In this document: positions 19,403 to 61,181 of the stretch, one piece after another
How positions within the stretch are numbered: position 1 is the first letter of the stretch
Layout of the letters: each line of letters starts with the position of its first letter
Assembly (NCBI GenBank): GCA_963674745.2
Contig: CAXXDV010000003.1
Location: 2,016,001 to 2,080,000 of the forward strand
Direction: 5' to 3'
DNA: 64,000 nt
From: Desulfosudaceae bacterium
GTDB lineage: Bacteria; Desulfobacterota; Desulfobacteria; Desulfobacterales; Desulfosudaceae
The notes under the pieces: generated by a model
Told to the model about the DNA's origin: nothing
The model's database searches: none
Seen by the model: the letters and a program-made list of their open reading frames with translations, nothing else
Program-made: the position numbers and the translations under genes

Positions 19403-19417
19403 TGGTCTCTTCTTTCT

Positions 19418-20101: not shown

Positions 20102-20117
20102 GTTTTCCCTCGTCGGC

Positions 20118-20873: not shown

Positions 20874-20878
20874 TTTTT

Positions 20879-22735: not shown

Positions 22736-22994
22736 AATTGTTTATTCAAAAAAAGCGACTTCCTAATTTGTCGTATAACGAACTTTCTTTGAATTTTAAT
22801 GGTAAAACCATTCCGGAAAACACTCTTTTTCCGGCTTGTTTTGAATTGCGACACAGTCTCCTCGACCCGGGGGCCAGAAAAACCGATTATATTCCTCTAT
22901 GTGCCTTCGGGGCCTGTATACCCATTTTCGTTCTGTTTCCCGGGCGCGAAGGCTCACTTGACCCCTCGAGTCCTTGAATCCTTGGCTCCTCTCG

Positions 22995-23822
22995 TTACGG
23001 CATAAACACCGGCACACTCCCCACAGCCTGCACCAGTTTCTGACCTTTGGGTGAAAACACGTAGTTGATAAAATCCAACGTAATCCCTTCCGGCCAGCCG
23101 TTGGTAAACATGTACAGGGGGCGGCTGACGCCATACTGACCACTTATGGTTGTCGTTTCGGTTCCCAGAACGCCGTCCACCTTCACCTGTTTGAGGGAAT
23201 CATTTAAGTAAGCCAGGCCGATATACCCGATGGCACCGGTGGTCTGGCCGACCGTCTGGACGGCGGCGCCATTGGAGGCAACCGTCAGCGCGCTGGGTAC
23301 AACCCGCTCTTTTTTCAACACAATATCACCCCAGACTTCATACGTCCCGGAAGAGCTGTCTCTTGAAACAACAACGATTTTTTCGTTTTTACCGCCGACG
23401 TCCTTCCAGTTGGTGATTTCCCCTTTATATATGGCCCCCAGTTGATTGATGGACAAATCCGATACCGGGTTGGCGGGATGGACCACCGGAACAATGCAAT
23501 CCATGGCAATTCTGAAAGGCACCGGATATATACCCTTGTCGCAGGCCATTTTGATCTCTTTGTCCTTGATAAACCGGGAGGCATTGGCAATATCGGTAGT
23601 ACCGTCAATAATGGCCTTGATACCGTTGCCGGAGCCGCCGCCGGAAAGGGAGACAGACACGTTTCTTTCCTGCATATAGGCTTCGGCGATTTTCTGAGCA
23701 GCCGGTAGCACGGTCGTCGACCCTTTGATGACCAGCTGTTCCGCCATGATCGGGACAACAGCAATGAACGCCGCCAGGGTTAGAACAATTGCGAATGTTA
23801 ATTTTTTTAATGTGTTTTTCAT
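22995..23822 (-). CDS. pstS: Phosphate-binding protein
   Basis: Signal peptide; KGSTTV, GGGSGNG, DIANASR, SRDSSSGT, SRPLYM. Confidence 0.92.
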   Translation of the reverse strand: MKNTLKKLTFAIVLTLAAFIAVVPIMAEQLVIKGSTTVLPAAQKIAEAYMQERNVSVSLSGGGSGNGIKAIIDGTTDIANASRFIKDKEIKMACDKGIYPVPFRIAMDCIVPVVHPANPVSDLSINQLGAIYKGEITNWKDVGGKNEKIVVVSRDSSSGTYEVWGDIVLKKERVVPSALTVASNGAAVQTVGQTTGAIGYIGLAYLNDSLKQVKVDGVLGTETTTISGQYGVSRPLYMFTNGWPEGITLDFINYVFSPKGQKLVQAVGSVPVFMP

Positions 23823-39443: not shown

Positions 39444-39453
39444 AATATACCTC

Positions 39454-45383: not shown

Positions 45384-45574
45384 AATTCATCTCCCACAAA
45401 TGCTGCATGGCGTTGCAAAATATTGCATACATGTTGCGCAACAGGTGAAGTCACTGCAATATCATAAAATATTTTCGATTATCGTAACCGAAATGTTGCA
45501 TATGGGCAACACATATCCTAAGAAAACAGACCTGCTTCATCCCTTAACGCCTGAACCCCGCGCTATTTCGGCGC

Positions 45575-45589
45575 TGGCACGATCCATGC
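45575..45589 (+). promoter_or_regulatory. Sigma54 -24/-12 promoter of the hdr operon
   Basis: TGGCAC-GATCC-ATGC (GG-N10-GC); upstream TGTTGC...GCAACA palindromes at about 45442-45453 and 45494-45511 are candidate activator sites. Confidence 0.75.
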
Positions 45590-45607
45590 GTATACAAAAA
45601 GTCCATT

Positions 45608-46045
45608 ATGGAGAACTCACCAAACATACTGATCCTTTCCGAGGCCATGGAGCTTCGATTTTTTCTTGAGACAGTGCTGACAGAAGCGCATTACCGTACG
45701 ACCAGCGCAGTAAATATGGAGGAAGCACTGGAGCAGGTTGTCCGGGACACGCCGGCAATGGTTCTCATTGATGTGATGTCCAGCAAGCAGGGAATCTCCA
45801 TGTACAGGCAGCTCCGGCGACATGAAAAATATAAATTTATCCCGGTGATCATGCTTTCCTCGTTGGCAAGGGAAGCTTTTTTTCAGCTGCACAACATTGA
45901 ATACAGTCTTCCGAAAAAAGGGTTGCCCAAACCCGACGACTACCTGCCCAAACCCCCGGAAGCAGAAGAACTGATAGACGCGATTAAAAAAATATTCAAG
46001 GACAAGTCAACCCCTGGCAACAAAGGAAAAAGAACATGCAATTGA
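45608..46045 (+). CDS. Stand-alone, atypical response-regulator receiver protein
   Basis: VLIDVM phospho-Asp, IPVIMLSS and YLPKP retained; the beta1 acidic pair is SE instead of DD. Confidence 0.78.
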   Translation: MENSPNILILSEAMELRFFLETVLTEAHYRTTSAVNMEEALEQVVRDTPAMVLIDVMSSKQGISMYRQLRRHEKYKFIPVIMLSSLAREAFFQLHNIEYSLPKKGLPKPDDYLPKPPEAEELIDAIKKIFKDKSTPGNKGKRTCN

Positions 46046-49000
46046 AGATCGGCTGTTATATCTGTCATTGCGGCATTAACATTGCCCATCGGGTGGATGT
46101 GGTGGAGGTGGCGAGGTTTGCAGGCACACTGGAAGGCGTTGTCATTGCCAGAGACTATAAATTCATGTGCTCTGATCCCGGCCAGGAAATGATCGAGGCA
46201 GATATTCATGAATTCGGACTGAACCGTGTAGTGGTGGCGTCCTGCTCTCCCAGACTCCATGAAAAAACCTTCCAGAGTGCTTGCAAGCGGGCCGGCATCA
46301 ACCCTTATCTTTTCCAGATGGCATCAATCCGGGAACAGGTTTCATGGGTGACGCTGGACGATGAAGAAGCGACGCGCAAAGCGAAAACCCTGGTTGCCGG
46401 TGCGGTCAACCGGGTCAAGGCCCATAACAGTCTTGAAACCCGGCATGTCAATGTCCATCCGGACATCATGGTCGTCGGCGGGGGCATTGCCGGCATGCAG
46501 GCGGCCCTGGATATCGGCAACAGCGGACATACCACCTACCTGGTGGAAAAATCCACGACCATCGGCGGCCACATGCTTCAATTCGATAAAACATTTCCAA
46601 CCCTGGACTGTGCGGCCTGCATCGGTACGCCGAAAATGGTGGAAGTGGCCCAGAATGCAAATATCGAGCTGCTTTCCTATTCGGAAGTAACCGGCGTTTC
46701 CGGCTACATCGGCAATTATGAGGTAACCATCCGGAGACGGCCACGGTATATCAAAGAAGATCTGTGCACCGGATGCGGAGAATGTACAAAAGCCTGTCCG
46801 GTCAGCTTTCCAAGTGAATGGGACGAATGCCTCCAGGACCGGAAAGCCATTTACAGGGCGTTTCCGCAGGCAGTCCCCATTACGTACTGTATCGACAAAC
46901 TTGATCCGGCTCCCTGCGTGCAGACCTGCCCGGCCCATGCGAATGTCCAGGGGTATATCCAGCTCATAAAAAAAGGTGAATACGAAAAAGCGGTCCGCCT
47001 GATCATGGAACGGATTCCATTACCCGGTGTTCTGGGGCGGGTCTGCCCGCATCCCTGTGAATCAGCCTGTCGCAGGGGCGATCTGGACACACCTCTTGCC
47101 ATCCGGGATTTGAAACGGTTCGCCGCAGACCAGGTGGACATGGAAACACTGGCAGTCCCTGAAATATCAGAACTGGGCAGAAAAATCGCTGTGATCGGCT
47201 CCGGGCCGGCCGGTTTGACAGCCGCCTATGATCTGCGGTTGAAAGGCTATGATGTTACCATTTTTGAAGCAGCCGGTCTTCCCGGCGGCATGCTGCGCAG
47301 CGGCATACCCGATTACCGCCTGCCGCAGGAAATACTGGATAAAGAGATCGGTTATATCCAGCGAATGGGCATTCGGATTGAAACCGGAAAAGCCCTGGGA
47401 AAACACGTCTTGACAGAACAGCTGAAATCTGACGGATTCGAGGCGGTTTTTCTCGGGATCGGTGCTCAGGGCGGCATGGCTCTGGATATTCAAGGTGAAA
47501 ACAGTCCCGGTGTAACAGATGCGATTCATTTTCTCCGGCAGGTCAGTCTCGGGAGCAGAGAGACGCCTGGCCGTATGGTAGCCATAATCGGTGGCGGTAA
47601 TGTGGCTGTTGATGCCGCCCGGACAGCCATTCGCCTGGGCGCGGAAGAAGTCATTCTGGCTTATCGTCGAACACGGGAGGAAATGCCGGCTTATGAGGAC
47701 GAAATCGAAGGCGCCCTGGCAGAGGGCGTGATATTGAGGCCGCTGGTGACACCTCTTGAGATCATTAAAAAAGACGGTCGCTGTGCGGGAATCCGGTGTG
47801 TGGAAAACCGCCTTGGTGACCCGGATGAAAGCGGCCGAAGGCGGCCGGAGCCTGTTGAAGGATCAGAATTCATACTGGCCTGTGACAGTGTAATCACTGC
47901 CATCGGTCAGGCCATTCTGCTGCCTGAAGATGCCACATTAAAAGAAATCGGTTTTGACCGCCGCAACCGCATCCGGGTCAATCCTGATACGCTCCAAACC
48001 GACATTGAATGGCTTTTTGCAGGCGGAGACATGGTCAGCGGACCCGCAACCGTTGTAGGAGCAGTATCCGGAGGACACCGGGCTGCCCATGCCATCCATC
48101 ATTATCTCTCAGGAAAGGATATGACGGAACTGCAGGGCTTCTTTGAATCTACAAAATCGATTGAAGAGAGTAACTATAAAGAGATACCGGCAAATGCAGC
48201 AATCTTAGAGCGGCAGGAATTAACCCACAGGGATGCCGGAAAACGGAAACACGATTTCAATGAAGAAACTGTCGGGTTTGATGCCGAGGGGGCAAAAGCC
48301 GAAGCTGAGCGTTGCCTGAACTGTCAGGGATGTTGTGAATGTATGGAATGTGTCCGGGCCTGTGAAGCAAAGGCCATTGATCATCTTATGAAACCTGAAG
48401 AAAAGACAGTCAAAGTCGGTTCCATTATCCTGACCACAGGCTATGATGTTCTGGACCCCACTGCCATGAAGCAATTTGGTTACGGCACTTTCCCCAATGT
48501 CTATACCAGTCTTGAATTTGAACGCCTTTCCAATGCCACCGGACCCACGGGCGGAGAAATCCTGATCCGGGACGACACCGGCGCTTTTGCCAGGGAGCCT
48601 AAAAGTGTGGCGCTACTGCACTGTATCGGCAGTCGGGATGCGAACTACCATGAATACTGTTCCCGTGTCTGCTGCATGTATGCGTTAAAATATTCCCACC
48701 TGATAAAGGAAAAAGTCGGGCATGACGCGGAGGTGTATGATTTTTACATTGATATGCGTTGCTTCGGAAAGGGATATGAAGAATTTTACCGCCGGTGCCA
48801 GGAAGAAGGCACCCATTTTATCCGCGGCAAGGCATCAGAAATTACGGACCAGGCGGAATCACCGGAAGAGGAAGGAAAGCTTGTGGTGATCGGTGAAGAT
48901 ACGCTTCTCTCCAGCCTGGTCCGCATTCCTGTGGATATGGTGGTGCTCTGTGTGGCCATGCAGGCCAGGGATGATGCCAGAGATGTCGGTCGAATTTTTG

Positions 49001-49455
49001 GTGTAAACCAGGGTTCGGACGGTTTTTTCCTTGAAGAACATCCCAAGCTGGGTCCGTTGAACACAGCGACGGACGGCGTTTTTATCGCCGGCGCCTGCCA
49101 GTCGCCGAAAGATGTCCCGGATACGGTGGCCCAGGCCTCTGGCGCCGCTGCAAAAGCCCTGTCGCTGGCATCCAGGGGCCAGGTCCAGGTATCATCAACC
49201 ATCTCCTGGATTGATCCGGATATCTGTGCCGGTTGTCAGATCTGCAGGCCTTTATGCCCGTATTCCGCTATTGAATTTGACGAACGCCGCAGGGTGTCCG
49301 TCGTCAATGAAGCCATCTGTAAAGGCTGTGGTTCATGCGCCGGGGCATGCCCGTCGGGCGCAGCCCAGGTCCGGCATTTTACGAAAAAACAAATGTTTTT
49401 AGAGTTTGAAGGTATTATGGCTGCCCTGAATAAGGTCCAGGCGCCGGCACAATAA
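46036..49455 (+). CDS. hdrA: HdrA-like subunit with an inserted GltD/NAD(P)H-binding flavin module (HdrL-type)
   Basis: ICHCGINI, VVASCSP, GGGIAG, DKTFPTLDCAAC, LEFER, YCSRVCCMYALK, YIDMRCFGK; insert GRVCPHPCE..C, GSGPAG, GGGNVAVDAAR, YRR. Confidence 0.9.
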   Translation: MQLKIGCYICHCGINIAHRVDVVEVARFAGTLEGVVIARDYKFMCSDPGQEMIEADIHEFGLNRVVVASCSPRLHEKTFQSACKRAGINPYLFQMASIREQVSWVTLDDEEATRKAKTLVAGAVNRVKAHNSLETRHVNVHPDIMVVGGGIAGMQAALDIGNSGHTTYLVEKSTTIGGHMLQFDKTFPTLDCAACIGTPKMVEVAQNANIELLSYSEVTGVSGYIGNYEVTIRRRPRYIKEDLCTGCGECTKACPVSFPSEWDECLQDRKAIYRAFPQAVPITYCIDKLDPAPCVQTCPAHANVQGYIQLIKKGEYEKAVRLIMERIPLPGVLGRVCPHPCESACRRGDLDTPLAIRDLKRFAADQVDMETLAVPEISELGRKIAVIGSGPAGLTAAYDLRLKGYDVTIFEAAGLPGGMLRSGIPDYRLPQEILDKEIGYIQRMGIRIETGKALGKHVLTEQLKSDGFEAVFLGIGAQGGMALDIQGENSPGVTDAIHFLRQVSLGSRETPGRMVAIIGGGNVAVDAARTAIRLGAEEVILAYRRTREEMPAYEDEIEGALAEGVILRPLVTPLEIIKKDGRCAGIRCVENRLGDPDESGRRRPEPVEGSEFILACDSVITAIGQAILLPEDATLKEIGFDRRNRIRVNPDTLQTDIEWLFAGGDMVSGPATVVGAVSGGHRAAHAIHHYLSGKDMTELQGFFESTKSIEESNYKEIPANAAILERQELTHRDAGKRKHDFNEETVGFDAEGAKAEAERCLNCQGCCECMECVRACEAKAIDHLMKPEEKTVKVGSIILTTGYDVLDPTAMKQFGYGTFPNVYTSLEFERLSNATGPTGGEILIRDDTGAFAREPKSVALLHCIGSRDANYHEYCSRVCCMYALKYSHLIKEKVGHDAEVYDFYIDMRCFGKGYEEFYRRCQEEGTHFIRGKASEITDQAESPEEEGKLVVIGEDTLLSSLVRIPVDMVVLCVAMQARDDARDVGRIFGVNQGSDGFFLEEHPKLGPLNTATDGVFIAGACQSPKDVPDTVAQASGAAAKALSLASRGQVQVSSTISWIDPDICAGCQICRPLCPYSAIEFDERRRVSVVNEAICKGCGSCAGACPSGAAQVRHFTKKQMFLEFEGIMAALNKVQAPAQ

Positions 49456-49481
49456 CTTTTTGAGACAAGAGAGGACGTTTT

Positions 49482-49904
49482 ATGAGTGAATTCAATCCCC
49501 TGATTATCGCTTTTGTCTGCAACTGGTGTACCTATACAGCTGCAGATCTGGCCGGTACATCCCGCCTGAATTATCCGGACAACATCCGACTGATGCGTGT
49601 GATGTGTACCGGCATGGTGGACCCACAATATGTCATTAAGGCTTTTCTGGAAGGCGCGGACATGGTTTTGGTCAGTGGTTGCCATCCGGGCGATTGCCAC
49701 TATATCAACGGCAATTACAAGGCACGGCGCCGGATAAAACTGCTTCAGGAGATCCTGCCCGTGCTCGGTATTGAAAAAGAACGACTGAAACTGACCTGGA
49801 TCGGGGCCAGTGACGGCATCCAATTCGCACGTACCATGGAAGAACTGGTGGTTCAGGCAAAAAATCTGGGGCCCGGCCCGGGACGGCAGCAAATTGCCGT
49901 CTGA
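49482..49904 (+). CDS. mvhD: MvhD/FlxD-type [2Fe-2S] subunit
   Basis: FVCNWCTYTAADLAG, RVMCTG, GCHPGDCHY. Confidence 0.92.
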   Translation: MSEFNPLIIAFVCNWCTYTAADLAGTSRLNYPDNIRLMRVMCTGMVDPQYVIKAFLEGADMVLVSGCHPGDCHYINGNYKARRRIKLLQEILPVLGIEKERLKLTWIGASDGIQFARTMEELVVQAKNLGPGPGRQQIAV

Positions 49905-49919
49905 TCAGGAGGAAAACAA

Positions 49920-51059
49920 ATGGCATTGACAACCCGTATTACAGTTGAAAATAAAGATTTTCTGGCGGCTGCAAGGCATTTTTTGATCGATGTACTGAAT
50001 TCTGACAGTATTGATGCGATAGTGGTTCCGCTGGTTTCGGAAGGCGGCCATTCCATCATGCCGGAACTGGTAACGGTTCCTTCCCGGCTGGAACAGGCGG
50101 ATCCTTTGAGCCCTTGTTTCCCGATGAATTCTGCACGTCTGATTTCAAGGCTGACCCGCAAACCAGGGAACAGAAAAATTGCGGCCGTACTCAGGCCGTG
50201 TGAAATCCGGGCACTGGTAGAACTGGTTAAACTCAAACAGGCCCGACTGGACGACCTGATCGTGATCAGTATGGACTGCCTGGGGGCCTATTCCAACAAA
50301 GACTGGACCCTCATCAGCGCATCCGGGCCGGATAATTTTACCCGGACTTTTTATGAAAAACAACTTTCCGGCAGGCTTTCGGAGGAAGGCGAACCGGAAA
50401 TAACTTCAGCCTGCAGGGCCTGTGAATATCCGGTATCTGACCAGGCAGACATCACCTTTGATTTCCTGGGTACAGAGATTACCCGGGAATTTCATATTAC
50501 AGGAAAAAGCGATGCCGGAGAGGCCCTGATCCGTGACCTGGGTTTTGAAACATCAGAACTGCCAAAAGACAGGGGGGCCCGGATAGCGGATCTCACTGCC
50601 AGGCGCCTGGCATTCCGGGATGACATGTTTGCCAGAACCCGTGAGGCGGTTGCGCCCCTGGACAAGCTGTCTGTTTATTTTGAACGATGCGTGAACTGCT
50701 ATAACTGCCGGGTGGCCTGTCCGGTCTGCTATTGCAGAGAGTGTGTTTTCAACACGGACGTGTTTGACCACGATCCGTTTCAGTACATGGAAAAAGCCCA
50801 TCGCAGCGGCAGTCTCCGTCTGCCTTCGGACACGCTCTTTTTCCACATCACCCGGATGGCGCACATGAGCCTGTCCTGTGTGGGCTGCGGACAGTGTTCC
50901 AATGCCTGCCCCAATGACATCCCGGTGATGGAGGTTTTTCGTCTGGCAGCATCCGCAGCCCAGGACGGTTTTGGCTATATCCCGGGGATAAAAAAAGATG
51001 ACGCCCCGCCCCTGTCGGAATTTAAGGAAAACGAATTTGAAGAGGTTGTCGGCATTTAA
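49920..51059 (+). CDS. FdhB/FrhB-like Fe-S subunit
   Basis: RPCEIRAL.EL.K..Q, MDCLG, ACRAC, CVNCYNCRVACPVCYCREC, CVGCGQCSNACP. Confidence 0.8.
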   Translation: MALTTRITVENKDFLAAARHFLIDVLNSDSIDAIVVPLVSEGGHSIMPELVTVPSRLEQADPLSPCFPMNSARLISRLTRKPGNRKIAAVLRPCEIRALVELVKLKQARLDDLIVISMDCLGAYSNKDWTLISASGPDNFTRTFYEKQLSGRLSEEGEPEITSACRACEYPVSDQADITFDFLGTEITREFHITGKSDAGEALIRDLGFETSELPKDRGARIADLTARRLAFRDDMFARTREAVAPLDKLSVYFERCVNCYNCRVACPVCYCRECVFNTDVFDHDPFQYMEKAHRSGSLRLPSDTLFFHITRMAHMSLSCVGCGQCSNACPNDIPVMEVFRLAASAAQDGFGYIPGIKKDDAPPLSEFKENEFEEVVGI

Positions 51060-51082
51060 CAAAATGATAAAAGGAAAAAAAC

Positions 51083-54000
51083 ATGAAGCCTGATCCCATG
51101 GATAATGAGCACAGCAACGCCCTGGTCGTCGGCGCAGGAATTTCCGGTATCCGCACTGCTCTGGATCTGGCCCAGCAGGGATACAGGGTGACGTTGATCG
51201 ACAGTAATCCGGCAACAGGCGGTCTGCTTAACCAGCTGGATTATCAGTTTCCCACTAATCACTGCGGCATGTGCAGGCTGCTGCCCCTGGTTCACCGGGA
51301 CCAGTCTTCCCAGCACTGCCTGCGCAAAGGTATTTTTCACGAAAACATCGACCTGCACTTATCCTGTGAGCTGCAGGATCTGTCCGGTGAGCCGGGAAAT
51401 TTTACGGCCCGGATAAAAGAAAAGCCGACCTGGGTGGATCCTGATCGATGCGTGGGATGTGGCCTTTGTGAACAGGTCTGCCCGGAAGAAATCCCGGACT
51501 GTTTCAACGAGGGGCTTTCCCGTAGAAAGGCGATTCATTTGCCCGTTCCCCATGCCATTCCAAATGCGTATGTTGTGGACCTGGCATTTTGCAGTCGTTG
51601 CGGCGCCTGTGAAGCGGTCTGTCCCACTGATGCGATTCAGCTGTCGGATGTCAACCGGAAGGCTTTTTCCATTCTGGTGGTGGATGATGAACTGAGCATC
51701 CGGGATTCCCTCAAAGAATGGCTGGAAGAAGAAGGTTTCAGCGTCGACATGGCCGATTCGGGCAAGGCGGCGCTTTCCGCGCTGGAAGAAAAAGAGTATC
51801 GTCTTATGCTGACCGACATCAAGATGCCGGAAATGGACGGCGTCGAGCTCTTGGCAAAGGCAAAAGAACTCCAGTCCGAGCTGAACGTGGTCATGATGAC
51901 AGCCTATGCTACCGTTGAGACGGCCATCGAAACCATGAAAACCGGCGCCCGGGATTACCTGATCAAACCGTTTGACCCGGAGACCCTGATACCCATGGTG
52001 GTCCGTATTTTTCAGGATGTCGAAGCATCAAAAGACCGGGTATTGTCAGTGGATACAGTTATCTTTGCCTGCGGTACCACTTTCTACAATCCCGCGGATA
52101 ACAAAAATGTTTATGGTTACGGGATTTATCCCAATGTACTCACCCACATCGAGTTTGAACGTATGCTCAGTCCGGCCGGCCCGAGTCCGGAAGGACTGCT
52201 GCGACGGGACAACAACAAGCCTGTAAAAAAAATTGCCTGGATTCAATGTGTCGGCTCAAGGGACATACAGAACGGGGCTGATTACTGCTCAGGCATCTGC
52301 TGTATGATTGCGGTAAAGGAGGCCATGCTGGCCAGACAGATGTCAGGCGGTCAAATTGAACCCGTTATTTTTTATATGGATATGCGGGCCTGGGGCAAGC
52401 CTTTTCAGTCTTATCTTGACGAAGCTGCGGAATCGGATCAAATCCGATTTGTCCGCTGCAAAGTTCACTCTTTAAGCGAGGATTCCGAGACCCGAGACCT
52501 TGTGCTGCGTTACATGGACCGGCCAGGACACGCCGTCTTTGAAAACTTTGATATGGTCGTTCTTTCCACAGGAATGCGGCCCGGTCCGGATATGGCGCGG
52601 CTGGCGGAAATCACAGGTGTCGGACTGAATCCCTGGGGATTTTTTGATCACCTTCCGTTTGAGCCTGCCAGGACCGGCCAGGACGGCATTTTTGTCTCCG
52701 GTTCCACCACGGAACTCCGGGACATCAGCGAGTCGATGATCACGGCCTCTGCTGCTGCTGCCAATGCTTCCGGAATTATCCGGAAGCAAGATGCCGGGCA
52801 AAAAATGCCGGCACTTCCCGTCTTACCTGAAAAGGATACAAGCCGGGAGCCCGTGCGGATTCTTCCGGTGATCTGCACCTGCAACGGACGCCTGGAGGCA
52901 GCGGTGACAAAAAAAGATATCGAGCAGGTTTTTGATTTCGACCCGGACCTTGACGATCCCGTTTTTATTGACCGGCTCTGCATGGCCCAGGGATGGCAGG
53001 AAATGAAAGACCACCTGGCAGACAGTGCCTGCAACCGGATGTTGATCGCCGCATGCCATCCTTATGTGTTTACGCCCGGAATCCGGAGGCTGAGGGATGA
53101 TCCCGGGGTTGATCCGGCCATGGTTCATGCCGTGGATACCATGACCCCTCTTTTCTCAACAAAACCGGAGAAAGCAGAAGAAAAAACATTACATTTATCC
53201 CGGATCGCCGCTGGCCTGCGCCAGGGAGCGGCCTTTCTGAAGCATGCCGAGCCCGCATCTCGCACTGAAACAGCCATGTGTCAGCGGGTACTGGTGATCG
53301 GGGGGGGGATCGCCGGCATGACGGCCGCCCTGGCTATTGCCGGTCAGGGCTTTGAGGTGGACCTGGTAGAAAAAGAAGAACAGTTTGGCGGCAATCTGAA
53401 CTGGCTTTCTTCCACCCTTGAGGGGCATGACGTCAAGGCCCTTCTCGAGGACACACTGTCCCGTCTAGGCAAAGCACCCGCCCTTTCACTTTATCCCGGT
53501 GCCCGGTTGGTGAATGTAACCGGAACCGCCGGTCATTTCCGGACGGTCCTCGAAGACGACCAGCAAAAAGGGGTGTCCCTGACACACGGCGCCGTCATCA
53601 TTGCCACCGGCGGCCGGGAATCAGATACCTGCGCCTTTTTGCATGGTGAAAATGACCGGGTGATCACCCAGAAAGCGCTGGAGGGAAAACTGTCTGAGGA
53701 AGGGGCCGATATTCCGGGTACAGTCGTGATGATTTTATGCGTTGACTCCAGGGTTCCGTCTGCGAACTACTGTTCCCAGGTCTGCTGCCCGACAGCGATA
53801 AAACAGGCGAGAGAAATCAAACGGCGCAGCCCGGACACAGAAATTTTTATTTTCTACCGGGATATGATGACCTGCGGTTTTTCAGAGACTTATTTCACCC
53901 ATGCCAGAAATGAAGGCATTATTTTCATCCCCTATTCACTGGACAAGCTTCCGGAAGTAAAAGCCATAGAGGACGGTATTCAGGTCTGCGGGAACGATCC

Positions 54001-54532
54001 CATCCTGGATCAGTCTCTTGAAATTTCAGCCGATCTTCTAATCCTTGCCACTGGAATTACACCGGAGTTGCCTGAAGATCTTGCAGAGATGCTTGGTATC
54101 GTCCGTGATAAAAACGGTTTTTTTAATGAAGCGGACCCCAAATGGCGTCCTTTGGACAGTCTCACCGAAGGCATTTTTGCCTGCGGTATTGTCCAGGCAC
54201 CCCGATCAGTGGAAAAGAGCATTGGAACGGCTCAGGCCGCAGCGCAGCGGGCCATGAGCATTATCAGCCAGCCCCGTTACCGGATGGACAGGACCACAGC
54301 ATCCGTCCGGCATGCAATCTGCAGCCGCTGTGAAGCCTGCATCCCGGTTTGCCCTTACAACGCACGAACACTGAACACAGAAGAAGACAGGATTCAGGTC
54401 AATGCATTGGCCTGCCAGGGATGCGGGGCCTGTGCAGCAGCCTGTCCCAATGGAGCGGCTATCCTTGAAGGCTTTTCCAGCCGTCAGATGCTGGATGGTA
54501 TTGACGCAGTCTTTTATCCGCTGCCGAATTAA
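51083..54532 (+). CDS. hdrA: Tandem (two-FAD-module) HdrA-like subunit with an internal response-regulator receiver domain
   Basis: GAGISG and GGGIAG FAD motifs; FPTNHCGMC; inserted ferredoxin; REC at about 51668-52016; YCSGICC and YCSQVCC clusters; C-terminal 2x[4Fe-4S]. Confidence 0.9.
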   Translation: MKPDPMDNEHSNALVVGAGISGIRTALDLAQQGYRVTLIDSNPATGGLLNQLDYQFPTNHCGMCRLLPLVHRDQSSQHCLRKGIFHENIDLHLSCELQDLSGEPGNFTARIKEKPTWVDPDRCVGCGLCEQVCPEEIPDCFNEGLSRRKAIHLPVPHAIPNAYVVDLAFCSRCGACEAVCPTDAIQLSDVNRKAFSILVVDDELSIRDSLKEWLEEEGFSVDMADSGKAALSALEEKEYRLMLTDIKMPEMDGVELLAKAKELQSELNVVMMTAYATVETAIETMKTGARDYLIKPFDPETLIPMVVRIFQDVEASKDRVLSVDTVIFACGTTFYNPADNKNVYGYGIYPNVLTHIEFERMLSPAGPSPEGLLRRDNNKPVKKIAWIQCVGSRDIQNGADYCSGICCMIAVKEAMLARQMSGGQIEPVIFYMDMRAWGKPFQSYLDEAAESDQIRFVRCKVHSLSEDSETRDLVLRYMDRPGHAVFENFDMVVLSTGMRPGPDMARLAEITGVGLNPWGFFDHLPFEPARTGQDGIFVSGSTTELRDISESMITASAAAANASGIIRKQDAGQKMPALPVLPEKDTSREPVRILPVICTCNGRLEAAVTKKDIEQVFDFDPDLDDPVFIDRLCMAQGWQEMKDHLADSACNRMLIAACHPYVFTPGIRRLRDDPGVDPAMVHAVDTMTPLFSTKPEKAEEKTLHLSRIAAGLRQGAAFLKHAEPASRTETAMCQRVLVIGGGIAGMTAALAIAGQGFEVDLVEKEEQFGGNLNWLSSTLEGHDVKALLEDTLSRLGKAPALSLYPGARLVNVTGTAGHFRTVLEDDQQKGVSLTHGAVIIATGGRESDTCAFLHGENDRVITQKALEGKLSEEGADIPGTVVMILCVDSRVPSANYCSQVCCPTAIKQAREIKRRSPDTEIFIFYRDMMTCGFSETYFTHARNEGIIFIPYSLDKLPEVKAIEDGIQVCGNDPILDQSLEISADLLILATGITPELPEDLAEMLGIVRDKNGFFNEADPKWRPLDSLTEGIFACGIVQAPRSVEKSIGTAQAAAQRAMSIISQPRYRMDRTTASVRHAICSRCEACIPVCPYNARTLNTEEDRIQVNALACQGCGACAAACPNGAAILEGFSSRQMLDGIDAVFYPLPN

Positions 54533-54544
54533 GAATCAAAAAAA

Positions 54545-55141
54545 GTGCCACGGAGCATGACTATGAAAAAAAAAGAAAATATCGTCCCGGAACGAGCAAA
54601 ACATCTTTTGGCAGCTGTGAGGGAAATGGTTCAGCCCTGCATCCAGTGCGGAACCTGTACCGGTTCATGCCCCAACGCTTTTGCCATGACACATACACCC
54701 AGAGCGCTGTGGCACATGGTGATAGAAGGTCAGGACGCTGAAGTATTGTCCAGCAAGACCTTTATTCTCTGCTCCTCCTGTTACTCATGCACCCTCCGCT
54801 GCCCCCGAGGGCTGCCGTTGACAAATGCCATGTCCCTGCTGACCCAGGCGGCCAGAGATGAAAATCAGCCCTGGTTTGTCAAAAGCCAGGCTTTTTATAC
54901 GGCATTTCTGGACAGTGTCCGCCGTCGAAAGCGCGTAAATGAGACTGAATTTATGTCTCTCTTCTTCTGGAAAATGAAAAATCCGATCCTTTCTCTGCAA
55001 TTTGCTTCCCTGGGCCTGAAACTGATGAAGAAACGCAAAATCAGTCTTCCGGTGTTTTTCCCGGGACAGGAAACAGGGCTTGAAAAAATTTTTGAAAAAA
55101 CCCGGCAGGTGGAAGCCGGACAAATGGAGAAAAAGGCATGA
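54545..55141 (+). CDS. hdrC: Heterodisulfide reductase subunit C-like
   Basis: CIQCGTCTGSCP and CSSCYSCTLRCPRG. Confidence 0.88.
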   Translation: MPRSMTMKKKENIVPERAKHLLAAVREMVQPCIQCGTCTGSCPNAFAMTHTPRALWHMVIEGQDAEVLSSKTFILCSSCYSCTLRCPRGLPLTNAMSLLTQAARDENQPWFVKSQAFYTAFLDSVRRRKRVNETEFMSLFFWKMKNPILSLQFASLGLKLMKKRKISLPVFFPGQETGLEKIFEKTRQVEAGQMEKKA

Positions 55142-56055
55142 AATATCTTTATTATCCCGGATGTTCCCTGGAGGGTACGGCTCTGGAATACAACCGCTCG
55201 ACCTGTTCCCTCATGGCGGCCCTGGGAGTGGAACTGGTGGAGATTGATGACTGGTCCTGCTGCGGGGCCAGTGCGGCCACAACGATATCTGAACTGCTTT
55301 CCCTTGTACTACCGGCCCGAAATCTGGCGCTGGCAGAAAGGATGTGCGAAGAAACCGGTGAAAAGCTGGATATTTTAGTACCCTGTTCGGCCTGCTATCT
55401 AAATTTAAAAAAAGTATCTGAACAGGCAGCGGCAAACCCTGCGTTGCTGGATCAGCTGAACTCGATTCTGGCAGAAGATGGACTGAAACTCGAGAATCAC
55501 TTGAATGTCCGTCACCTGCTCGATGTGCTCAGCAAAGACTTAGATCCGGACCATCTGGCCGCAAGCGTCATATCTCCGCTGTTCGGGGTATCAGCCGCAC
55601 CATATTACGGGTGTCAGTGCCTGAGGCCCTACCCTGTTTTTGATGATCCGGAGAAACCCGAATCAATGGATGCCCTGATCCGGGCCTGTGGTGCAACGCC
55701 CTATGCCTGGGCCATGGGAGGGGTCTGCTGCGGCGCATCACATATGAATACAAAACCGGAAGTCGGAAAAACGTTGGTTGGACGTATCCTGAGCCGGGCC
55801 GGAAATGCCGACGTCATCCTGACGGTCTGTCCAATGTGCCAGATGAACCTTGAAGGATATCAGAAAAAAACCGGCCATGCCTGTCATAAGGAATTCAATA
55901 CCACGATTCTGTATCTTCCACAATTTATCGGAATCGCGCTGGGCCTCTCAGAAGAACAGGTCCGCACGGATTTAAACCTTTCAATCACAGCCGATTTCAA
56001 AAAAAAGATAGAAAATTTGACACGCACGTCCTTAACTCAGGCGTCTTCAGGATAG
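55138..56055 (+). CDS. hdrB: Heterodisulfide reductase subunit B-like
   Basis: YYPGCSL, WSCCGA, PCSAC; YYGCQ, CCGA, VCPMCQMNL (two CCG domains). Confidence 0.92.
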   Translation: MKYLYYPGCSLEGTALEYNRSTCSLMAALGVELVEIDDWSCCGASAATTISELLSLVLPARNLALAERMCEETGEKLDILVPCSACYLNLKKVSEQAAANPALLDQLNSILAEDGLKLENHLNVRHLLDVLSKDLDPDHLAASVISPLFGVSAAPYYGCQCLRPYPVFDDPEKPESMDALIRACGATPYAWAMGGVCCGASHMNTKPEVGKTLVGRILSRAGNADVILTVCPMCQMNLEGYQKKTGHACHKEFNTTILYLPQFIGIALGLSEEQVRTDLNLSITADFKKKIENLTRTSLTQASSG

Positions 56056-56078
56056 TCCAACAATATAAGGAGGGTATT

Positions 56079-57392
56079 ATGTTTAAAAAAATTCTTTTGG
56101 CGACTACGCCGGCAGACGAGTCAAAAGGGGCGGCAGATCTTGCTTTTGCCATGGCAAGGCCGAGCAGTTCAAAGCTTTACATCTTTCATGCCTATGGGCT
56201 TCCGGATCAGGGATGGGGCAACATGCGTTATCTTTTGCCGTCCGGCAAGGTAGACGAGGCCGAAAAAGAACTGGAAGCTTATTTTAAAGCAGACCTGGAA
56301 GCTGTGGAAAATTATGAAGTCAAAGTTGTTCCGGGCGTTCCTGAAATTGAGATTCTCAGGTATGCCAGAAAGCATAATGTGGATGTGATTGTCATGGGCC
56401 CGCACCGGGTGGAACAGAATCAGCCGCGTATCTGGGGAATGACGGGTTCCACCATACAGAAAGTCAGCCTCAAGGCCCGGTGTCCGGTGATGATCGTCCC
56501 ACCGGATATGCCGGAAATTTTTCGTCCGGAAGAAGTCCATCTTTCAAAGGAAGACCGTCTAAGTTACAATGTCCTTGTTGTCGACGACGAACTTTCAATG
56601 CGTGATTCTTTAAAAGAATGGCTGACCGAAGAAGGGTTTACCGCTGATATGGCGGAATCCGGGGAGCAGGCACTTGAAATGCTGTCTAAAAAAACATATC
56701 AGCTCATGCTGACAGACATCAAGATGCCGGGTATGGACGGGGTTACACTGCTGGAAAAGGCAAAGCAGTATTATCCCCGGCTTGCCGTGGTCATGATGAC
56801 GGCCTATGCCACCATTGATACTGCCCTGCGCGCGACAAAAAAAGGGGCACTGGATTACCTGGTCAAACCCTTTGATCCGGAACAGCTGATTCCGAAACTC
56901 CGGCAGTTTCATCAGGATTACGAACTCACCCGCGGACGGTTTAAAATTGCTTTTTCAAACATTGTTCTTGCAACAGACTTCAGCAAACCGGCATTTTGTG
57001 CATTTAATTTTGCATTGGATATCGCGCAGGTATATGACGCAACCCTGCATATTTTTCATGTCCTGCCGGATACTGATCATGAAAAAATTCTGCCCCAGGC
57101 TGAAGTAGAACGAAACATCCAGGAAGCCCTGTCAAAAATGGAACAGCGCTATGGCCCTGATCTTTCTGCAGTTGTTGATTATTCAATGGATTCCTGGGAA
57201 GGCGTTCCTCATGCAGAAATTTTGAAATTTGCCAGATGGAAATATGCCGATCTCATCATAATGGCCCATCATTCCAGGGAGCGGGATCCGGAAAGCGCTG
57301 TTCTTGGCTCCACAGTGATTAAAGTTGCCTCCAGTGCCCGGTGCCCGGTACTGAGCATTAACAGGGATTTCATTCCTCGCTGCTGTGCCTGA
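56079..57392 (+). CDS. Universal stress protein with a central receiver domain (USP-REC-USP)
   Basis: MFKKILLAT...DVIVMG...GST..KV...CPVMIV; REC at about 56565-56915; NIVLATDFS...DLIIMA...LGST..KV...CPVLSI. Confidence 0.88.
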   Translation: MFKKILLATTPADESKGAADLAFAMARPSSSKLYIFHAYGLPDQGWGNMRYLLPSGKVDEAEKELEAYFKADLEAVENYEVKVVPGVPEIEILRYARKHNVDVIVMGPHRVEQNQPRIWGMTGSTIQKVSLKARCPVMIVPPDMPEIFRPEEVHLSKEDRLSYNVLVVDDELSMRDSLKEWLTEEGFTADMAESGEQALEMLSKKTYQLMLTDIKMPGMDGVTLLEKAKQYYPRLAVVMMTAYATIDTALRATKKGALDYLVKPFDPEQLIPKLRQFHQDYELTRGRFKIAFSNIVLATDFSKPAFCAFNFALDIAQVYDATLHIFHVLPDTDHEKILPQAEVERNIQEALSKMEQRYGPDLSAVVDYSMDSWEGVPHAEILKFARWKYADLIIMAHHSRERDPESAVLGSTVIKVASSARCPVLSINRDFIPRCCA

Positions 57393-57403
57393 TAACGGAG
57401 TTC

Positions 57404-58957
57404 ATGATGAATGAAGATAAAACGGAATGGAAAATCGTATTAATCGATGATGAACCCGATATCAGGGAGGTGATCCAGATCGTCCTGACGGACTGGGGAT
57501 ATACTGTTTTTACGGCTGATAACGGGTTGTCCGGCCTGGCATTGTGCCGGAAAATCTCTCCCCAGGTGGTGATCACCGATGTAAAAATGCCTGGTATGGG
57601 AGGTCTCCAGGTACTGGCACGCCTGAAAGAAGTGCAACCAAGAATTGAAGTCATCGTGATGACGGCTTTCGGGGATATCGAAACCGCCATCGAGGCGATT
57701 CAGCTGAATGCATCTGATTTTATCACAAAGCCGGTCAATGACCAGGCATTGGAACTGGCCATTGATCGGGCGAAACAGCGATATACATCGGCCAGGCAGA
57801 TCAGGGAACACGCAAAGATGCTGGAAAACGGCTGGATGCAGGCCAACCGTGAGCTTGAGAAAAACTACCACTTCCAGGATAAAATTATCAATAATTCCAT
57901 CAGTGGGATTATTGCCAGCGGTCCGGATGGCCTGATTAAACTTTTTAATGCCAGTGCCGAAAAGATGACCGGCTTCAAAGCAGCTGAAATCCTGGGGACA
58001 AAAAAACTGGCTTCCCTTTTCGACGAAAACGATTTCAACGAGATCGAACTGGCTCTGGCTGATAATGGTCACGGTGGACCGAACCGGATCGATCTTATGG
58101 AATCAATGATCAAGGACGATAATGGTACACATATCCCTGTTCAGATTTCAGCCAGCCTTTTGTTCGACAACCAGAAACATGAAGGTACGCTGATCTGCCT
58201 GCGGGATCTCAGGGAATTGCGCCGGATCGAAAGGGAAATGGCGGACCAGGAGAAAATCCTGCACCAGGACAAAATGATGTCTCTTGGAAGACTGGCCGCG
58301 TCTGTGGTTCATGAAATCAACAACCCCCTGTCCGGAATTTTGAATTATCTGCGGCTTATGGAAAAAATGACCCGGAAGCCCCTGGATGAAACAAAACTTG
58401 AAAAATTTTCCGGGTACCTGGAAATTGCGTCCAAAGAAACGGCCCGCTGTTCTTCTATCATTTCAAATCTTCTGATTTTTTCCAGAAAATCATCAATCAG
58501 TTATGAAGCCGTGAACGTGACAGATCTTCTGGAGCGGACGGCTCTGCTCATCCGCCACAAACTCGAACTGTCCAACGTATCCCTCTTACTCGAGCGTCCC
58601 GCCGACATTCCTGACTTAAAAGCGGATGCCAACCAGATTCAGCAATGTCTGATCAATCTTATTTTTAATGCCCTGGATGCAACACCGGAAGGGGGCACCA
58701 TCACCATCAGTGCGGATCACCCTTCAGGTACCAACCAAATCAATATATCCATCGCCGACTCCGGCAGCGGCATCCCTGAAAAAGACCTGCCATATATTTT
58801 TGATCCTTTTTTTACAACCAAAAAAGAAGGCCATGGTGTCGGGCTGGGGCTTTCAACCGTTTACGGCATCATGGAACGCCATGGCGGGGCCGTCCGGGTA
58901 GCAGAGACCGGTCCTTCCGGCACCCGCTTTATTTTGGAATTCAACTCCCTGGCTTAA
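57404..58957 (+). CDS. Cytoplasmic hybrid histidine kinase (REC-PAS-HisKA-HATPase)
   Basis: LIDDE/TDVKMP/KP receiver; FNASAEKMTG PAS; HEINNPL; NALDA, DSGSG, DPFFTTK, GLGL. Confidence 0.92.
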   Translation: MMNEDKTEWKIVLIDDEPDIREVIQIVLTDWGYTVFTADNGLSGLALCRKISPQVVITDVKMPGMGGLQVLARLKEVQPRIEVIVMTAFGDIETAIEAIQLNASDFITKPVNDQALELAIDRAKQRYTSARQIREHAKMLENGWMQANRELEKNYHFQDKIINNSISGIIASGPDGLIKLFNASAEKMTGFKAAEILGTKKLASLFDENDFNEIELALADNGHGGPNRIDLMESMIKDDNGTHIPVQISASLLFDNQKHEGTLICLRDLRELRRIEREMADQEKILHQDKMMSLGRLAASVVHEINNPLSGILNYLRLMEKMTRKPLDETKLEKFSGYLEIASKETARCSSIISNLLIFSRKSSISYEAVNVTDLLERTALLIRHKLELSNVSLLLERPADIPDLKADANQIQQCLINLIFNALDATPEGGTITISADHPSGTNQINISIADSGSGIPEKDLPYIFDPFFTTKKEGHGVGLGLSTVYGIMERHGGAVRVAETGPSGTRFILEFNSLA

Positions 58958-58972
58958 AAAAAGACAAGGTAC

Positions 58973-60775
58973 GTGGTTTCTCTCAGCAATTTTAAAAAAA
59001 GCATTGCCTGTAAATTGATCCTCGCAGCAGGGCTGACGGTCCTGATAACAGTTTTTATCGGCGCGCTCCTCTTCATCCAATATGAAGAAACAAAGACGCT
59101 GATTTCTTTTGCCGTATTCATTTTTTTGATCTGTTCTTCAATTATTGCGATTTTCGTCATGCGTTTTGTGAACCGCCCGATTAAACAATTAATCTGGGAA
59201 ACCCGCCGGATTAATCAGAAGGCCCATGGCCGGATAGAAGGCTTCCGGGGCGGAGAGATCAAGCAGCTTGCAGAAGCGATCAATGAGATGGCTGAACAAA
59301 TGGATCTCAAGCAGAAAATATTGAATGAACAGCGCCAGGAATATCAGAATCTGTTTGAGGCAGTGCCCTGTCTGATTACAGTTCAGAACCGAAATTTTGA
59401 ACTTCTGCAGTACAACCGAAAATTCAAGGAACGCTTCCATCCAGATAAAGGGGCGCTTTGCTACCAGGCATATAAGAACCGCTCCAGTCCATGCCAGAAT
59501 TGTCCTATGGTTGAAACGTTCAAAGACGGTAAATCCCACCATGGTGAACAAAGCAGCATGACCCGGTCCGGGAAAACTTCCTACTGGACGTTGCGAACAG
59601 CCCCGATCAAGGACGCCGACGGCAACGTCACCGCTGTGATGGAAATATCCGTCGATATCACAAAAATGCGTCTGCTGGAAAATGAAGTCCGGAGATCTGA
59701 AGAAAAATACAGGGCCATTTTTGATAATACACCTAATCCACTGTTTGTTTTGGAAAGAGAAACACTGAAAATTCTGGACTGCAATGCAAGTGCGCATCAG
59801 ATATACGCGTATACGAAAAAAGAGATGCTTTCCCTGCAATTCGGAGATTTTTTTGACCCTGAATTTGAGCCGGAAGCCACGGCAGCTATCCGGGCATGTA
59901 GAACGCTCACAAGGGTCCGTCATCTTGGTAAAAACGGAAAAATTATTTTTGTCGACATCAGTGTTGCACCATCACAATACCAGGCATCCCGGGTGCTCCT
60001 GGCCAATGCCACCGATGTGACGGAACGGCTAACGGCAGAACAGCAGCTGATTCAGACCAGCAAAATGGCAACCCTCGGAGAGATGGCAACGGGTATTGCC
60101 CATGAATTGAACCAGCCCCTCACCGTGATCAAGACCGCGGCCGGCTTCATTCTGCGCAAAGCCCAGAAAAAGGAACCTATTGACGACGAAATCATGTCCA
60201 CCATGGCTGAAAAGATTGACGGACAGGTGAACCGGGCATCTAAAATCATCAATCACATGCGAGAATTCGGTCGAAAATCTGATGTGGTCAAAAAAACAGC
60301 CGATGTCAACCGGGCTCTGAACAATGCGTTTGATATTTTCCGTCAGCAGCTGAAACTGCACCAGATCGATGTGATCCGGCGCCTGACGCCTGATCTGCCT
60401 TTGGTTTTGGCTGATGAAAACCGTCTGGAACAGGTTTTTATCAATATCCTGATCAATGCCAGAGATGCCATTGATTCAAAATCTGTATTGGAAGAGGAGC
60501 AAGCCGATTCCATGGAATTAAAGCAGATCTACCTGACCACAAAAAGATCAGGCGGCGGGGTGGTTGTTGAAATAGAAGATACAGGCACCGGCATTCCAGA
60601 AGCGATTACAAACAAAATCTTTGACCCTTTTTTCACGACAAAACAGGCCGGTAAGGGAACCGGTCTCGGCTTGTCCATCTCTTATGGTATCATCAAGGAT
60701 TATGATGGACATATAAGCGTTCAAAAGGGAAAGTTCAACGGCGCATTATTCATCATCAAGCTTCCCTGCGCATGA
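58973..60775 (+). CDS. Membrane histidine kinase (2TM-HAMP-PAS-PAS-HisKA-HATPase)
   Basis: Two adjacent TM segments with almost no periplasmic loop; HAMP; HELNQPL; NARDA, DTGTG, DPFFTTK, GTGLGL. Confidence 0.92.
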   Translation: MVSLSNFKKSIACKLILAAGLTVLITVFIGALLFIQYEETKTLISFAVFIFLICSSIIAIFVMRFVNRPIKQLIWETRRINQKAHGRIEGFRGGEIKQLAEAINEMAEQMDLKQKILNEQRQEYQNLFEAVPCLITVQNRNFELLQYNRKFKERFHPDKGALCYQAYKNRSSPCQNCPMVETFKDGKSHHGEQSSMTRSGKTSYWTLRTAPIKDADGNVTAVMEISVDITKMRLLENEVRRSEEKYRAIFDNTPNPLFVLERETLKILDCNASAHQIYAYTKKEMLSLQFGDFFDPEFEPEATAAIRACRTLTRVRHLGKNGKIIFVDISVAPSQYQASRVLLANATDVTERLTAEQQLIQTSKMATLGEMATGIAHELNQPLTVIKTAAGFILRKAQKKEPIDDEIMSTMAEKIDGQVNRASKIINHMREFGRKSDVVKKTADVNRALNNAFDIFRQQLKLHQIDVIRRLTPDLPLVLADENRLEQVFINILINARDAIDSKSVLEEEQADSMELKQIYLTTKRSGGGVVVEIEDTGTGIPEAITNKIFDPFFTTKQAGKGTGLGLSISYGIIKDYDGHISVQKGKFNGALFIIKLPCA

Positions 60776-61181
60776 GCGCGCTCACGCCAGAATATCGATC
60801 GGCATTTGAAGTACTTCACTATCAACATCCAATATTCAGCCCCGATGTATCACTTTCTTAAATTTGCATTGACATAAAATGATCCGGCTTCCTATAATCA
60901 CATTTTTAAAAATCGACTTATTTTCAACCACATCATGCGAAACAACAACTCGATTTTCACTGAGCATGTAAAAAAATCGAAAGCCGTGGTATTAAACAGT
61001 AAGTTTAATGAAATATAAAAAGACACACAACAAGAGGGCAAAGTCATTCTGAACAGCCACGCTCTTTGCTTGCACAAATAGAGACACTGATCAGTTTAAT
61101 TGATCCTAAAACGTTGTGGGCCGATAGACAAAAAATAGATTTAATGGCGTCAGCAGAATTGTAAATAGCGAGTATTTTCTT

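Follow-up and report, generated by a model that had tools for sequence, protein, structure and literature searches.

We analysed a stretch of 64,000 nt from a Desulfosudaceae bacterium (assembly GCA_963674745.2, contig CAXXDV010000003.1, positions 2,016,001 to 2,080,000 of the forward strand; hereafter the window), with attention to one operon in which the genes of a heterodisulfide reductase (Hdr)-type complex are followed by the genes of a tandem universal stress protein (USP) and of two histidine kinases, HK1 and HK2 (Table 1). In our reading, to which we give a probability of about 0.58, an NAD(P)H-linked HdrL-MvhD-FdhB'-HdrA'BC complex is subject to two separate layers of control, the phosphotransfer and the control of the enzyme being predicted from sequence comparison.

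In the first layer, which is transcriptional, an OrpR-like activator would sense redox by a putative Fe-S cluster bound to its PAS domain and would drive a sigma54 promoter. In the second layer, which is post-translational, an ancestral pair formed by a kinase and an NtrC regulator would have been rewired. HdrA would have acquired the NtrC receiver at the end of its inserted ferredoxin domain, and a few lineages, the present one among them, would have gained a copy of the same cassette in the linker of the tandem USP. HK1, as the descendant kinase, is predicted from co-evolution to phosphorylate Asp245 of HdrA and the matching aspartate of the USP together. The output of HK1 would in turn depend on its N-terminal receiver, for which HK2 is the most likely kinase. 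Judging from the insertion site, phosphorylation of the HdrA receiver may move the inserted ferredoxin domain, make it more or less accessible, or alter how the complex assembles, and may in this way gate the exit or entry of low-potential electrons.

An earlier note on this DNA had proposed post-translational phosphorelay control of the enzyme by its neighbouring kinases. We keep enzyme-level control as a prediction but change its wiring, which would run from HK2 over HK1 to HdrA and USP, and we add a transcriptional layer distinct from it.

The receiver inside HdrA

The HdrA protein aligned to chain A of the methanogen structure 5ODC in two pieces, the alignment ending at residue 310 and restarting at residue 320, which places the receiver (aa 197-305) where the inserted ferredoxin domain ends. 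In the methanogen complexes, as far as they are described in PMC12350162, the inserted ferredoxin domain docks FmdF or MvhB and is the anticipated electron exit.

The receiver residues D201, D202, D245, T273 and K295 were invariant in all the 74 full-length orthologs of this fusion (HdrA-REC), and the receiver columns had a conservation of 0.78 vs 0.68-0.69 for the second halves of the flavin domains. Duplicated loci (L106, L114, L125, L132 and L141) were dropped from the counts based on 74 HdrA-REC orthologs, 22 activators, 55 HK2 orthologs and 57 loci; they are still included in the count over 47 REC1 rows and in the sigma54 count over 41 upstream regions given below. Among 88 non-redundant loci with a complete HdrA receiver, the receiver was intact at 84. 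To describe how widespread the fusion is we used 401 genomes of the order, which are related to each other, so that counts from this sample are not independent. The ferredoxin-receiver fusion was present in 196 of them (a count that leaves out three matches to the USP receiver), and the ferredoxin-receiver segment was present in 8 of the 400 other genomes of a phylum-wide sample, one of the 8 being a decayed form.

The HdrA, USP and HK1 receivers each carry the acidic pair, the phosphorylatable Asp, a Thr or Ser and the Lys. The four receivers listed in the earlier note are thus all present in the operon, and three of them are intact, since the stand-alone receiver REC1 has lost its acidic pocket (LSEA replaces VDDE). 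REC1 reached 48.8 bits against the DVU0259/DivK family NF045717, below the cut-off of 160, and only 13 of the 47 rows of its family were intact; it is probably a pseudo-receiver that is no longer phosphorylated here.

It is very improbable that the receiver, phosphorylated or not, is a purely structural, docking or dimerisation domain without regulatory effect: although some lineages tolerate its absence or decay, and receiver-less tandem HdrA paralogs are common, the five phosphorylation residues are invariant in 74 of 74 orthologs, the kinase-facing helix is invariant as well, and the receiver is decayed where HK1 was not found.

The copied cassette in the universal stress protein

Identity between the HdrA and USP receivers is 65%, against 49% for the next best in the genome, and the linkers on both flanks of the two receivers are also alike. 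We considered as specificity surface the kinase-facing positions of receiver helix 1 (14-23 in OmpR numbering), which are the positions known from work on the specificity of two-component systems. Among the 99 receiver domains of the genome, W23 (within the signature S19/E22/W23) was found only in the HdrA and USP receivers, and the other 97 matched at most three of the six specificity positions. Between themselves, the HdrA and USP receivers hardly differ over this surface.

In a tree of 126 receivers, obtained by a quick search on few columns, all the 41 HdrA and 6 USP receivers formed one clade (SH-aLRT 97) in which the USP rows were nested in the HdrA rows, and this clade was placed among the receivers of W23-type NtrC regulators. 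Identity, flanks and tree position all mark the receiver of the USP as a copy of the cassette in HdrA. A first tree suggested two independent origins of the USP receiver, but the topology test was compatible with a single origin as well (p-AU 0.695).

Tandem USPs lacking a receiver align on both sides of the insertion, and such proteins follow hdrB in the related operons L037, L038 and L136. The USP-REC-USP arrangement is rare (15 of the 401 genomes); a protein search for it returned 74 full-length clusters with the phosphorylation residues intact in all of them (41 passed a script and the other 33 were read by eye). The USP had been proposed as a target of the local kinases together with the enzyme. 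The local USP receiver is intact and forms a private class with that of HdrA, in agreement with this role, while its occurrence in 15 of 401 genomes speaks against it being a core part of the circuit.

Assignment of the kinases

In both HK1 and HK2 the H-box His is followed by an acidic residue (HEINNP and HELNQP, respectively), and the Pfam HisKA and HATPase_c matches were above the cut-off. The nearest outside relatives of the HdrA and USP receivers were NtrC-type regulators with S19/W23, from several phyla. The kinase adjacent to such W23-type NtrC regulators had an H-box of the type HExNNP in 41 of 44 cases (38 of them HExNNP[LI]xG), had no readable H-box in 3 and never had HELNQP; for other NtrC pairs HExNNP[LI]xG was found in only 1 of 25. 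A profile of the cognate phosphotransfer helix ranked HK1 at the top of the kinases of the genome with 90.8 bits, the next one having 63.1 bits and HK2 36.7 bits. Moreover, the kinase tree mirrors the receiver tree, with the clade of HK1 orthologs (support 97) among the cognate kinases (98) and HK2 outside.

In the 401 genomes, HdrA-REC and HK1 occurred together in 144, HdrA-REC only in 52, HK1 only in 17 and neither in 188. Ten of the genomes with HdrA-REC only were tested: a shorter kinase of the HK1 class, identical in its H-box, was present in nine, and the tenth had a partial match of 57%. These shorter kinases are mostly 9-21 kb upstream of the hdrA gene. In three genomes with a decayed HdrA receiver no HK1-class match was found at E 1e-42, and a full-length HK2 was kept (55-57%). 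At the loci examined for USP-REC-USP, an HK1-class kinase adjoins this gene in 12 of 14, also away from hdr genes, and a 54% fragment does so at the thirteenth. HK1 alone is predicted from this co-evolution to be the cognate kinase of the HdrA and USP receivers, because it has the H-box class and the ancestry expected and because the decay of the receiver tracks the loss of HK1, not that of HK2.

In the wiring of the earlier note HK1 and HK2 would both phosphorylate the HdrA and USP receivers directly, which we consider quite unlikely. For gene neighbourhoods we used 57 non-redundant loci flanked by 8 kb or more on the upstream side and by 7 kb or more on the downstream side, picked by score and contig size and hence not a random sample. 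Direct action of both kinases would agree with HK2 being the commonest neighbour (42 of 57 loci), placed directly after hdrA where hdrCB is missing there, and with its divergent position beside USP-REC-USP at 2 of 14 loci. However, the phosphotransfer helix of HK2 scores far below that of HK1 on the cognate profile, HK2 lies outside the cognate clade, and it persists both beside a receiver-less HdrA (L039, L040) and in the genomes with decayed receivers. The claim that the local kinases target the enzyme and the USP is hence retained as a prediction for HK1, and is not supported for HK2.

We rather place HK2 upstream. In most loci HK2 is followed by a short hybrid kinase, and the receiver of HK1 clusters with the receivers of these kinases (support 99); it also has the best score in the genome for this receiver class. 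From receiver class and gene adjacency, HK2 probably acts on the receiver of HK1, as a weaker part of the prediction.

HK2 lacks here a periplasmic domain of about 150 aa with CxxCH and Cx3-4CHxH motifs (around 58973-59300) that was kept in 55 of 55 full-length orthologs, in which it is possibly a dihaem sensor. A similarly short form of HK2 occurs at L135. The membrane-side input of HK2 may be dispensable, as the short L135 form also suggests, while the Cys-rich PAS domain is kept.

The short REC-kinase found at 33 of the 57 loci (e.g. L001:321-1496), usually after HK2, has an odd H-box, SHGIKG, with no acidic residue after the His, and is missed by the Pfam HisKA model. It is absent from the operon in the window, and the only one of the genome is beside an hmc operon (G000:C1:2485873). 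The decay of REC1 showed no clear association with the absence of this HGIK-type kinase and is not used as evidence: the REC1 acidic pair was intact at 25 of 30 loci with the kinase vs 6 of 9 without it.

Several points weigh against the two-layer reading with HK1 as the kinase of HdrA. HK2 adjoins hdrA more often than HK1 does (42 vs 19 of the 57 loci), and the HK2-to-HK1 step, the weaker one, was drawn solely from adjacency and from the grouping of the HK1 receiver. At L108 the Asp of the HdrA receiver is changed to Gly, yet the genome retains an HK1-class kinase. A shared ancestry of HK1 and the receiver would explain the matching trees even if the roles changed later, and the kinship of the genomes makes the P value of the co-occurrence overstated. 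The three decayed cases may represent one or two events, two of them being metagenome-assembled genomes of unknown completeness. A structure model of HdrA-REC from a 10-row alignment had a mean pLDDT of 65.8, with the receiver and the flavin domains modelled; in the ferredoxin domains pLDDT was below 50, so that no contact between receiver and ferredoxin domain is readable. Finally, the amount of the homolog in Syntrophobacter fumaroxidans shifts strongly with sulfate, so that control of expression may dominate.

Transcriptional control

The sigma54 site upstream of REC1 was the sole match in the window; chance gave one match in 24 of 100 shuffles. With the strict pattern, 14 of 41 related upstream regions had the same site ahead of the first gene; the 41 include duplicates and some non-promoter regions. 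The sigma54 promoter announced by the earlier note is therefore present as a site which by itself is not above chance and is supported by its recurrence. Scans for sigma70 promoters and terminators gave numbers of sites within or near the shuffled range.

The first PAS domain of the divergent activator has C57-x8-C66-x3-C70 and C121, and these four Cys and the GAFTGA motif were invariant in 22 of 22 orthologs. OrpR of Desulfovibrio vulgaris, to which we liken it by motif, is according to PMC8359166 likewise a PAS-AAA-HTH sigma54 activator with the C-x8-C-x3-C spacing, whose three cysteines (C52/C61/C65) are required for redox sensing. The present activator departs from OrpR in having two PAS domains and a fourth invariant Cys; its candidate palindrome and its target operon are different too. 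It cannot be called OrpR proper, which belongs to orp operons and binds GGGCGYRTTTTGCGCCC, as its neighbours are hdr genes and the upstream palindromes differ. Two of the six genome-wide copies of the TGTTGC..GCAACA palindrome are in the promoter gap of 224 bp, and TTGC..GCAA palindromes occur upstream of many orthologous operons. Because of the OrpR cysteine spacing and the palindromes in the promoter gap, the divergent activator is probably an Fe-S redox-sensing activator that drives the sigma54 promoter separately.

The claim that the circuit has no transcriptional output is not supported as a property of the family: we found no DNA-binding regulator at 44 of the 57 loci, a W23-type NtrC beside its own kinase at 6, another NtrC at 6 and an OmpR type at 1, so that 13 of 57 carry a DNA-binding response regulator. 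In the present genome none of the 12 NtrC-type receivers has the signature, and the ortholog of the W23-type NtrC is also missing in three of the four closest architectural relatives; the candidate that comes nearest agrees with the USP receiver at three positions and differs at 19, 22 and 23. Hence for this genome the claim stands in so far as no such output is visible for HK1, and not in so far as the operon is probably transcribed through the OrpR-like activator. A DNA-binding regulator elsewhere that the kinases would prefer was thus not seen in this genome, and the neighbourhood comparison showed the signalling genes to be co-conserved with the hdr genes.

A different flow of the signal has to be weighed here, which we regard as unlikely, though less so than direct action of both kinases. 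The HdrA receiver could be a redox-gated phosphate sink or relay that reports the redox state or flux of the enzyme, in a circuit whose outputs would be the USP receiver, REC1 or, elsewhere, a W23-type NtrC and which would end in transcription, for example by a receiver acting in trans on the receiver-less activator. This reversed flow is favoured by the position of activator orthologs within the kinase cluster at many loci (in the orders HK1-activator-REC1-hdrL and HK2-activator-short kinase), a receiver-less AAA activator being present at 23 of 57, while the activator carries its own sensor motif, REC1 is degenerate here and in most orthologs, and more than 90% of the genomes with HdrA-REC have no USP receiver, so that HdrA is the only visible target in most. 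Similarly, a W23-type NtrC is near the operon at 6 of 57 loci and next to HK1 in some genomes, but it is absent here and from three of the four closest architectural relatives and, where present, is accompanied by an adjacent kinase of its own, whose H-box tail is different. In the part of 10.1101/2023.11.02.564894 that concerns the hmc cluster, rrf1 and rrf2 are described as regulators of hmc expression, which also agrees with the reversed flow.

The Hdr enzyme and its known relatives

The run of hdrL, mvhD, an FdhB-like FeS gene, hdrA, hdrC and hdrB corresponds to the HdrL/HdrABC cluster of sulfate reducers. The second HdrA has a thioredoxin-reductase-fold FAD domain, an inserted 2x[4Fe-4S] ferredoxin domain and a C-terminal one (phmmer to 5ODC/9SFI, Foldseek and invariant cysteines). 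The NCBIfam cut-offs for the methanogen equivalogs were not reached by HdrA (638-780 vs 1100 bits), HdrB (140 vs 345) and HdrC (68 vs 160). By the first flavin, E359 and K412 were present in 74 of 74 full-length HdrA-REC orthologs and E357 in 69 of 74, aligned to the same motifs of 5ODC. In that structure we take the residues beside the flavin to be Glu356 and Lys409, presumably with a role in bifurcation. The FdhB/FrhB-like subunit has orthologs with 47-53% identity in most related loci. Many relatives (L002, L004, L017, L027, L111, L118 and others) have, instead of the hdrC-hdrB pair after hdrA(REC), a CCG/FeS protein of about 640-770 aa encoded upstream plus a split HdrD-like pair, the receiver and the kinases being retained.

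HdrL is defined in PMC2702500. By analogy with PMC5947623, NAD(P)H, ferredoxin and a DsrC-type disulfide are probably the partners that the complex couples. In the description given there, Sfum_0819-0824 of S. fumaroxidans has the same gene set (hdrL, mvhD, FdhB-like FeS, hdrABC); its account of the cluster discusses no USP-REC-USP, receiver or kinase, and the word 'kinase' has 0 occurrences in the main text. However, its supplement lists Sfum_0821 as a receiver-modulated FAD oxidoreductase, with an abundance of about 6.1-7.1 with sulfate vs 4.3-5.2 in methanogenic cocultures, on an apparently logarithmic scale; the fusion is thus on record as an annotation, and the organism makes the protein. 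Likewise, the hdr locus VIII of Desulfobacterium autotrophicum HRM2 (PMC2702500) has tandem hdrL/hdrA4 with mvhD, fdhB and hdrCB. Genes for a response regulator, a CheY-like regulator and a histidine kinase are named as neighbours in the legend of Fig. 4 of that paper, possibly for this locus, and 'receiver' has zero occurrences in its main text.

With the methanogen HdrABC-MvhD complexes (PDB 5ODC, 8RVU/8RVY and 7BKB; PMC12350162, in the parts that describe the subunits) the operon shares the HdrA fold and sequence, the inserted ferredoxin domain, MvhD, an FdhB/ElpB-like subunit and HdrBC. It differs by three flavin-binding HdrA modules plus the NAD(P)H module, by the permuted tandem HdrA and the receiver insertion, and by having no gene for a hydrogenase or formate dehydrogenase catalytic subunit.

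Regulators with an enzyme output, as REC-thioredoxin reductase and REC-pyruvate phosphate dikinase in the census of PMC5847659, also combine a receiver with a metabolic enzyme, the flavin disulfide reductase fold being among those represented. Unlike the cases given there, the receiver here is inserted inside a multi-cluster subunit of the bifurcation type, and the same cassette recurs in the USP; 'heterodisulfide' is absent from the available text of that census. A response regulator is likewise assigned to an hdr-containing operon of a sulfate reducer by PMC3333781 (DVU2394 and the adh-hdr operon of D. vulgaris), with DNA binding as the output described, whereas the output predicted here is the enzyme. 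In a literature search that paired HdrA or HdrL with terms for receivers, response regulators or CheY, with most subscription journals outside its scope, we found no functional study of the fusion or of its kinase.

Regulator, USP and kinase genes flank hmc/tmc operons (PMC5109826). The present genome also has, at G000:C1:2476000-2492400 (L209, L210), hmc-like (16-haem cytochrome) and tmc-like operons flanked by USP, stand-alone receiver and kinase genes; further hdrA, hdrL and mvhD genes adjoin them, several being split at likely selenocysteine positions.

Significance

The design is widespread and strongly conserved: a redox cluster of known type that carries a putative, as yet uncharacterised layer of phosphorylation. 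The type of redox cluster and receivers on metabolic enzymes were already known; the kinase assignment, the copied cassette and the comparison of decayed receivers come from the present analysis. Sequence relationships suggest that a kinase/NtrC pair was rewired from the control of genes to that of an enzyme. We propose, tentatively and with somewhat less than even confidence, that about half of the genomes of the order switch an electron-bifurcating Hdr complex by His-Asp phosphorylation, from a haem/Fe-S membrane kinase to a soluble hybrid kinase and to an NtrC-derived receiver at the ferredoxin gate of HdrA, which would set whether or which way electrons split, the same cassette in the USP making a second switched protein.

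If true, this would be the first two-component circuit with flavin-based bifurcation itself as output. The way in which anaerobes distribute electrons over their many complexes of Hdr type is an open question; the examples of control found in the literature searched are transcriptional. If the receiver at the HdrA ferredoxin exit gates the flux, a sensor kinase could switch it quickly in a group that dominates sulfur and carbon cycling in sediments. The prediction names a specific kinase-substrate pair and residue, and the cultured S. fumaroxidans makes a protein annotated as an HdrA-receiver fusion.

Operon layout and neighbouring genes

The ten co-oriented genes on the + strand have intergenic gaps of -10 to +30 nt. 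The gene order, domain strings, four receivers and two kinases reported before were all confirmed with Pfam at the positions of Table 1. So was the observation that no receiver is joined to a DNA-binding domain, as none of the ten proteins matches an HTH or another DNA-binding family in Pfam, and the divergent enhancer-binding protein indeed has no receiver.

Table 1. Position and basis of the features of the operon and of its upstream region (positions in the window; aa, position in the protein)
Feature	Position	Strand	Basis
Divergent sigma54 activator, PAS-PAS-AAA-HTH, no receiver	43626..45383	-	Pfam
Palindrome pair TGTTGC...GCAACA, candidate activator binding sites	45432-45443, 45494-45511	.	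Pattern search
sigma54 -24/-12 promoter-like site, TGGCAC-N5-ATGC	45575-45589	+	Pattern scan
REC1, stand-alone receiver	45608-46045	+	Pfam; weak NCBIfam NF045717 match
HdrL-type FAD/NAD(P)/FeS protein (a GltD-like flavin module that binds NAD(P)H is inserted into HdrA)	46036-49455	+	Pfam, NCBIfam
MvhD (cysteine form)	49482..49904	+	PF02662 (FlpD), E 2e-51
FdhB/FrhB-like Fe-S subunit	49920..51059	+	Fer4; weak FrhB_FdhB_C, below cut-off
Tandem HdrA with intact inserted receiver (HdrA-REC)	51083..54532	+	Response_reg E 5e-31
Receiver inside tandem HdrA	aa 197-305, nt 51671-51997	+	Pfam Response_reg
HdrC-like 2x[4Fe-4S] subunit	54545..55141	+	Pfam; below NCBIfam equivalog cut-offs
HdrB-like subunit, 2 CCG domains	55138..56055	+	Pfam; below NCBIfam equivalog cut-offs
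USP-REC-USP, tandem universal stress protein with receiver in linker	56079..57392	+	Pfam
Receiver of USP-REC-USP	aa 165-274, nt 56571-56900	+	Pfam, alignment
HK1, soluble REC-PAS-HisKA-HATPase, H-box HEINNPLSGILNY	57404..58957	+	Pfam
HK2, membrane kinase TM-TM-HAMP-PAS(Cys-rich)-PAS-HisKA-HATPase, H-box HELNQPL	58973..60775	+	Pfam; two N-terminal hydrophobic stretches

A contig from a public run covers 51676-60900 without differences; it is probably from the source sample and thus not independent. The HdrA ferredoxin-receiver segment was not found in any of the 8 other genomes of the same family, including a congener with 99% completeness, and the nearest copies with the same gene order through USP-REC-USP, HK1 and HK2 are in two other families (L096-L099). 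This distribution suggests lateral gain or repeated loss of the cluster 43626-60775; base composition gave no signal of horizontal transfer (GC 50.6% in the locus vs 50.5% in the genome).

At 41551-43614 of the window a second receiver-less sigma54 activator, with GAF-type repeats and AAA, converges on the OrpR-like one; it was not seen among the related hdr loci. Upstream of both activators, at 38169-40932, a gene for an FAD-linked oxidase is followed by a CCG/FeS gene, as in GlcD/GlcF- or lactate-dehydrogenase-like pairs. The window also holds phoB-phoR-phoU-pst at 18707-23822, and a close second copy of phoB/phoR is found elsewhere in the genome (G000:C1:1851871-1854409).

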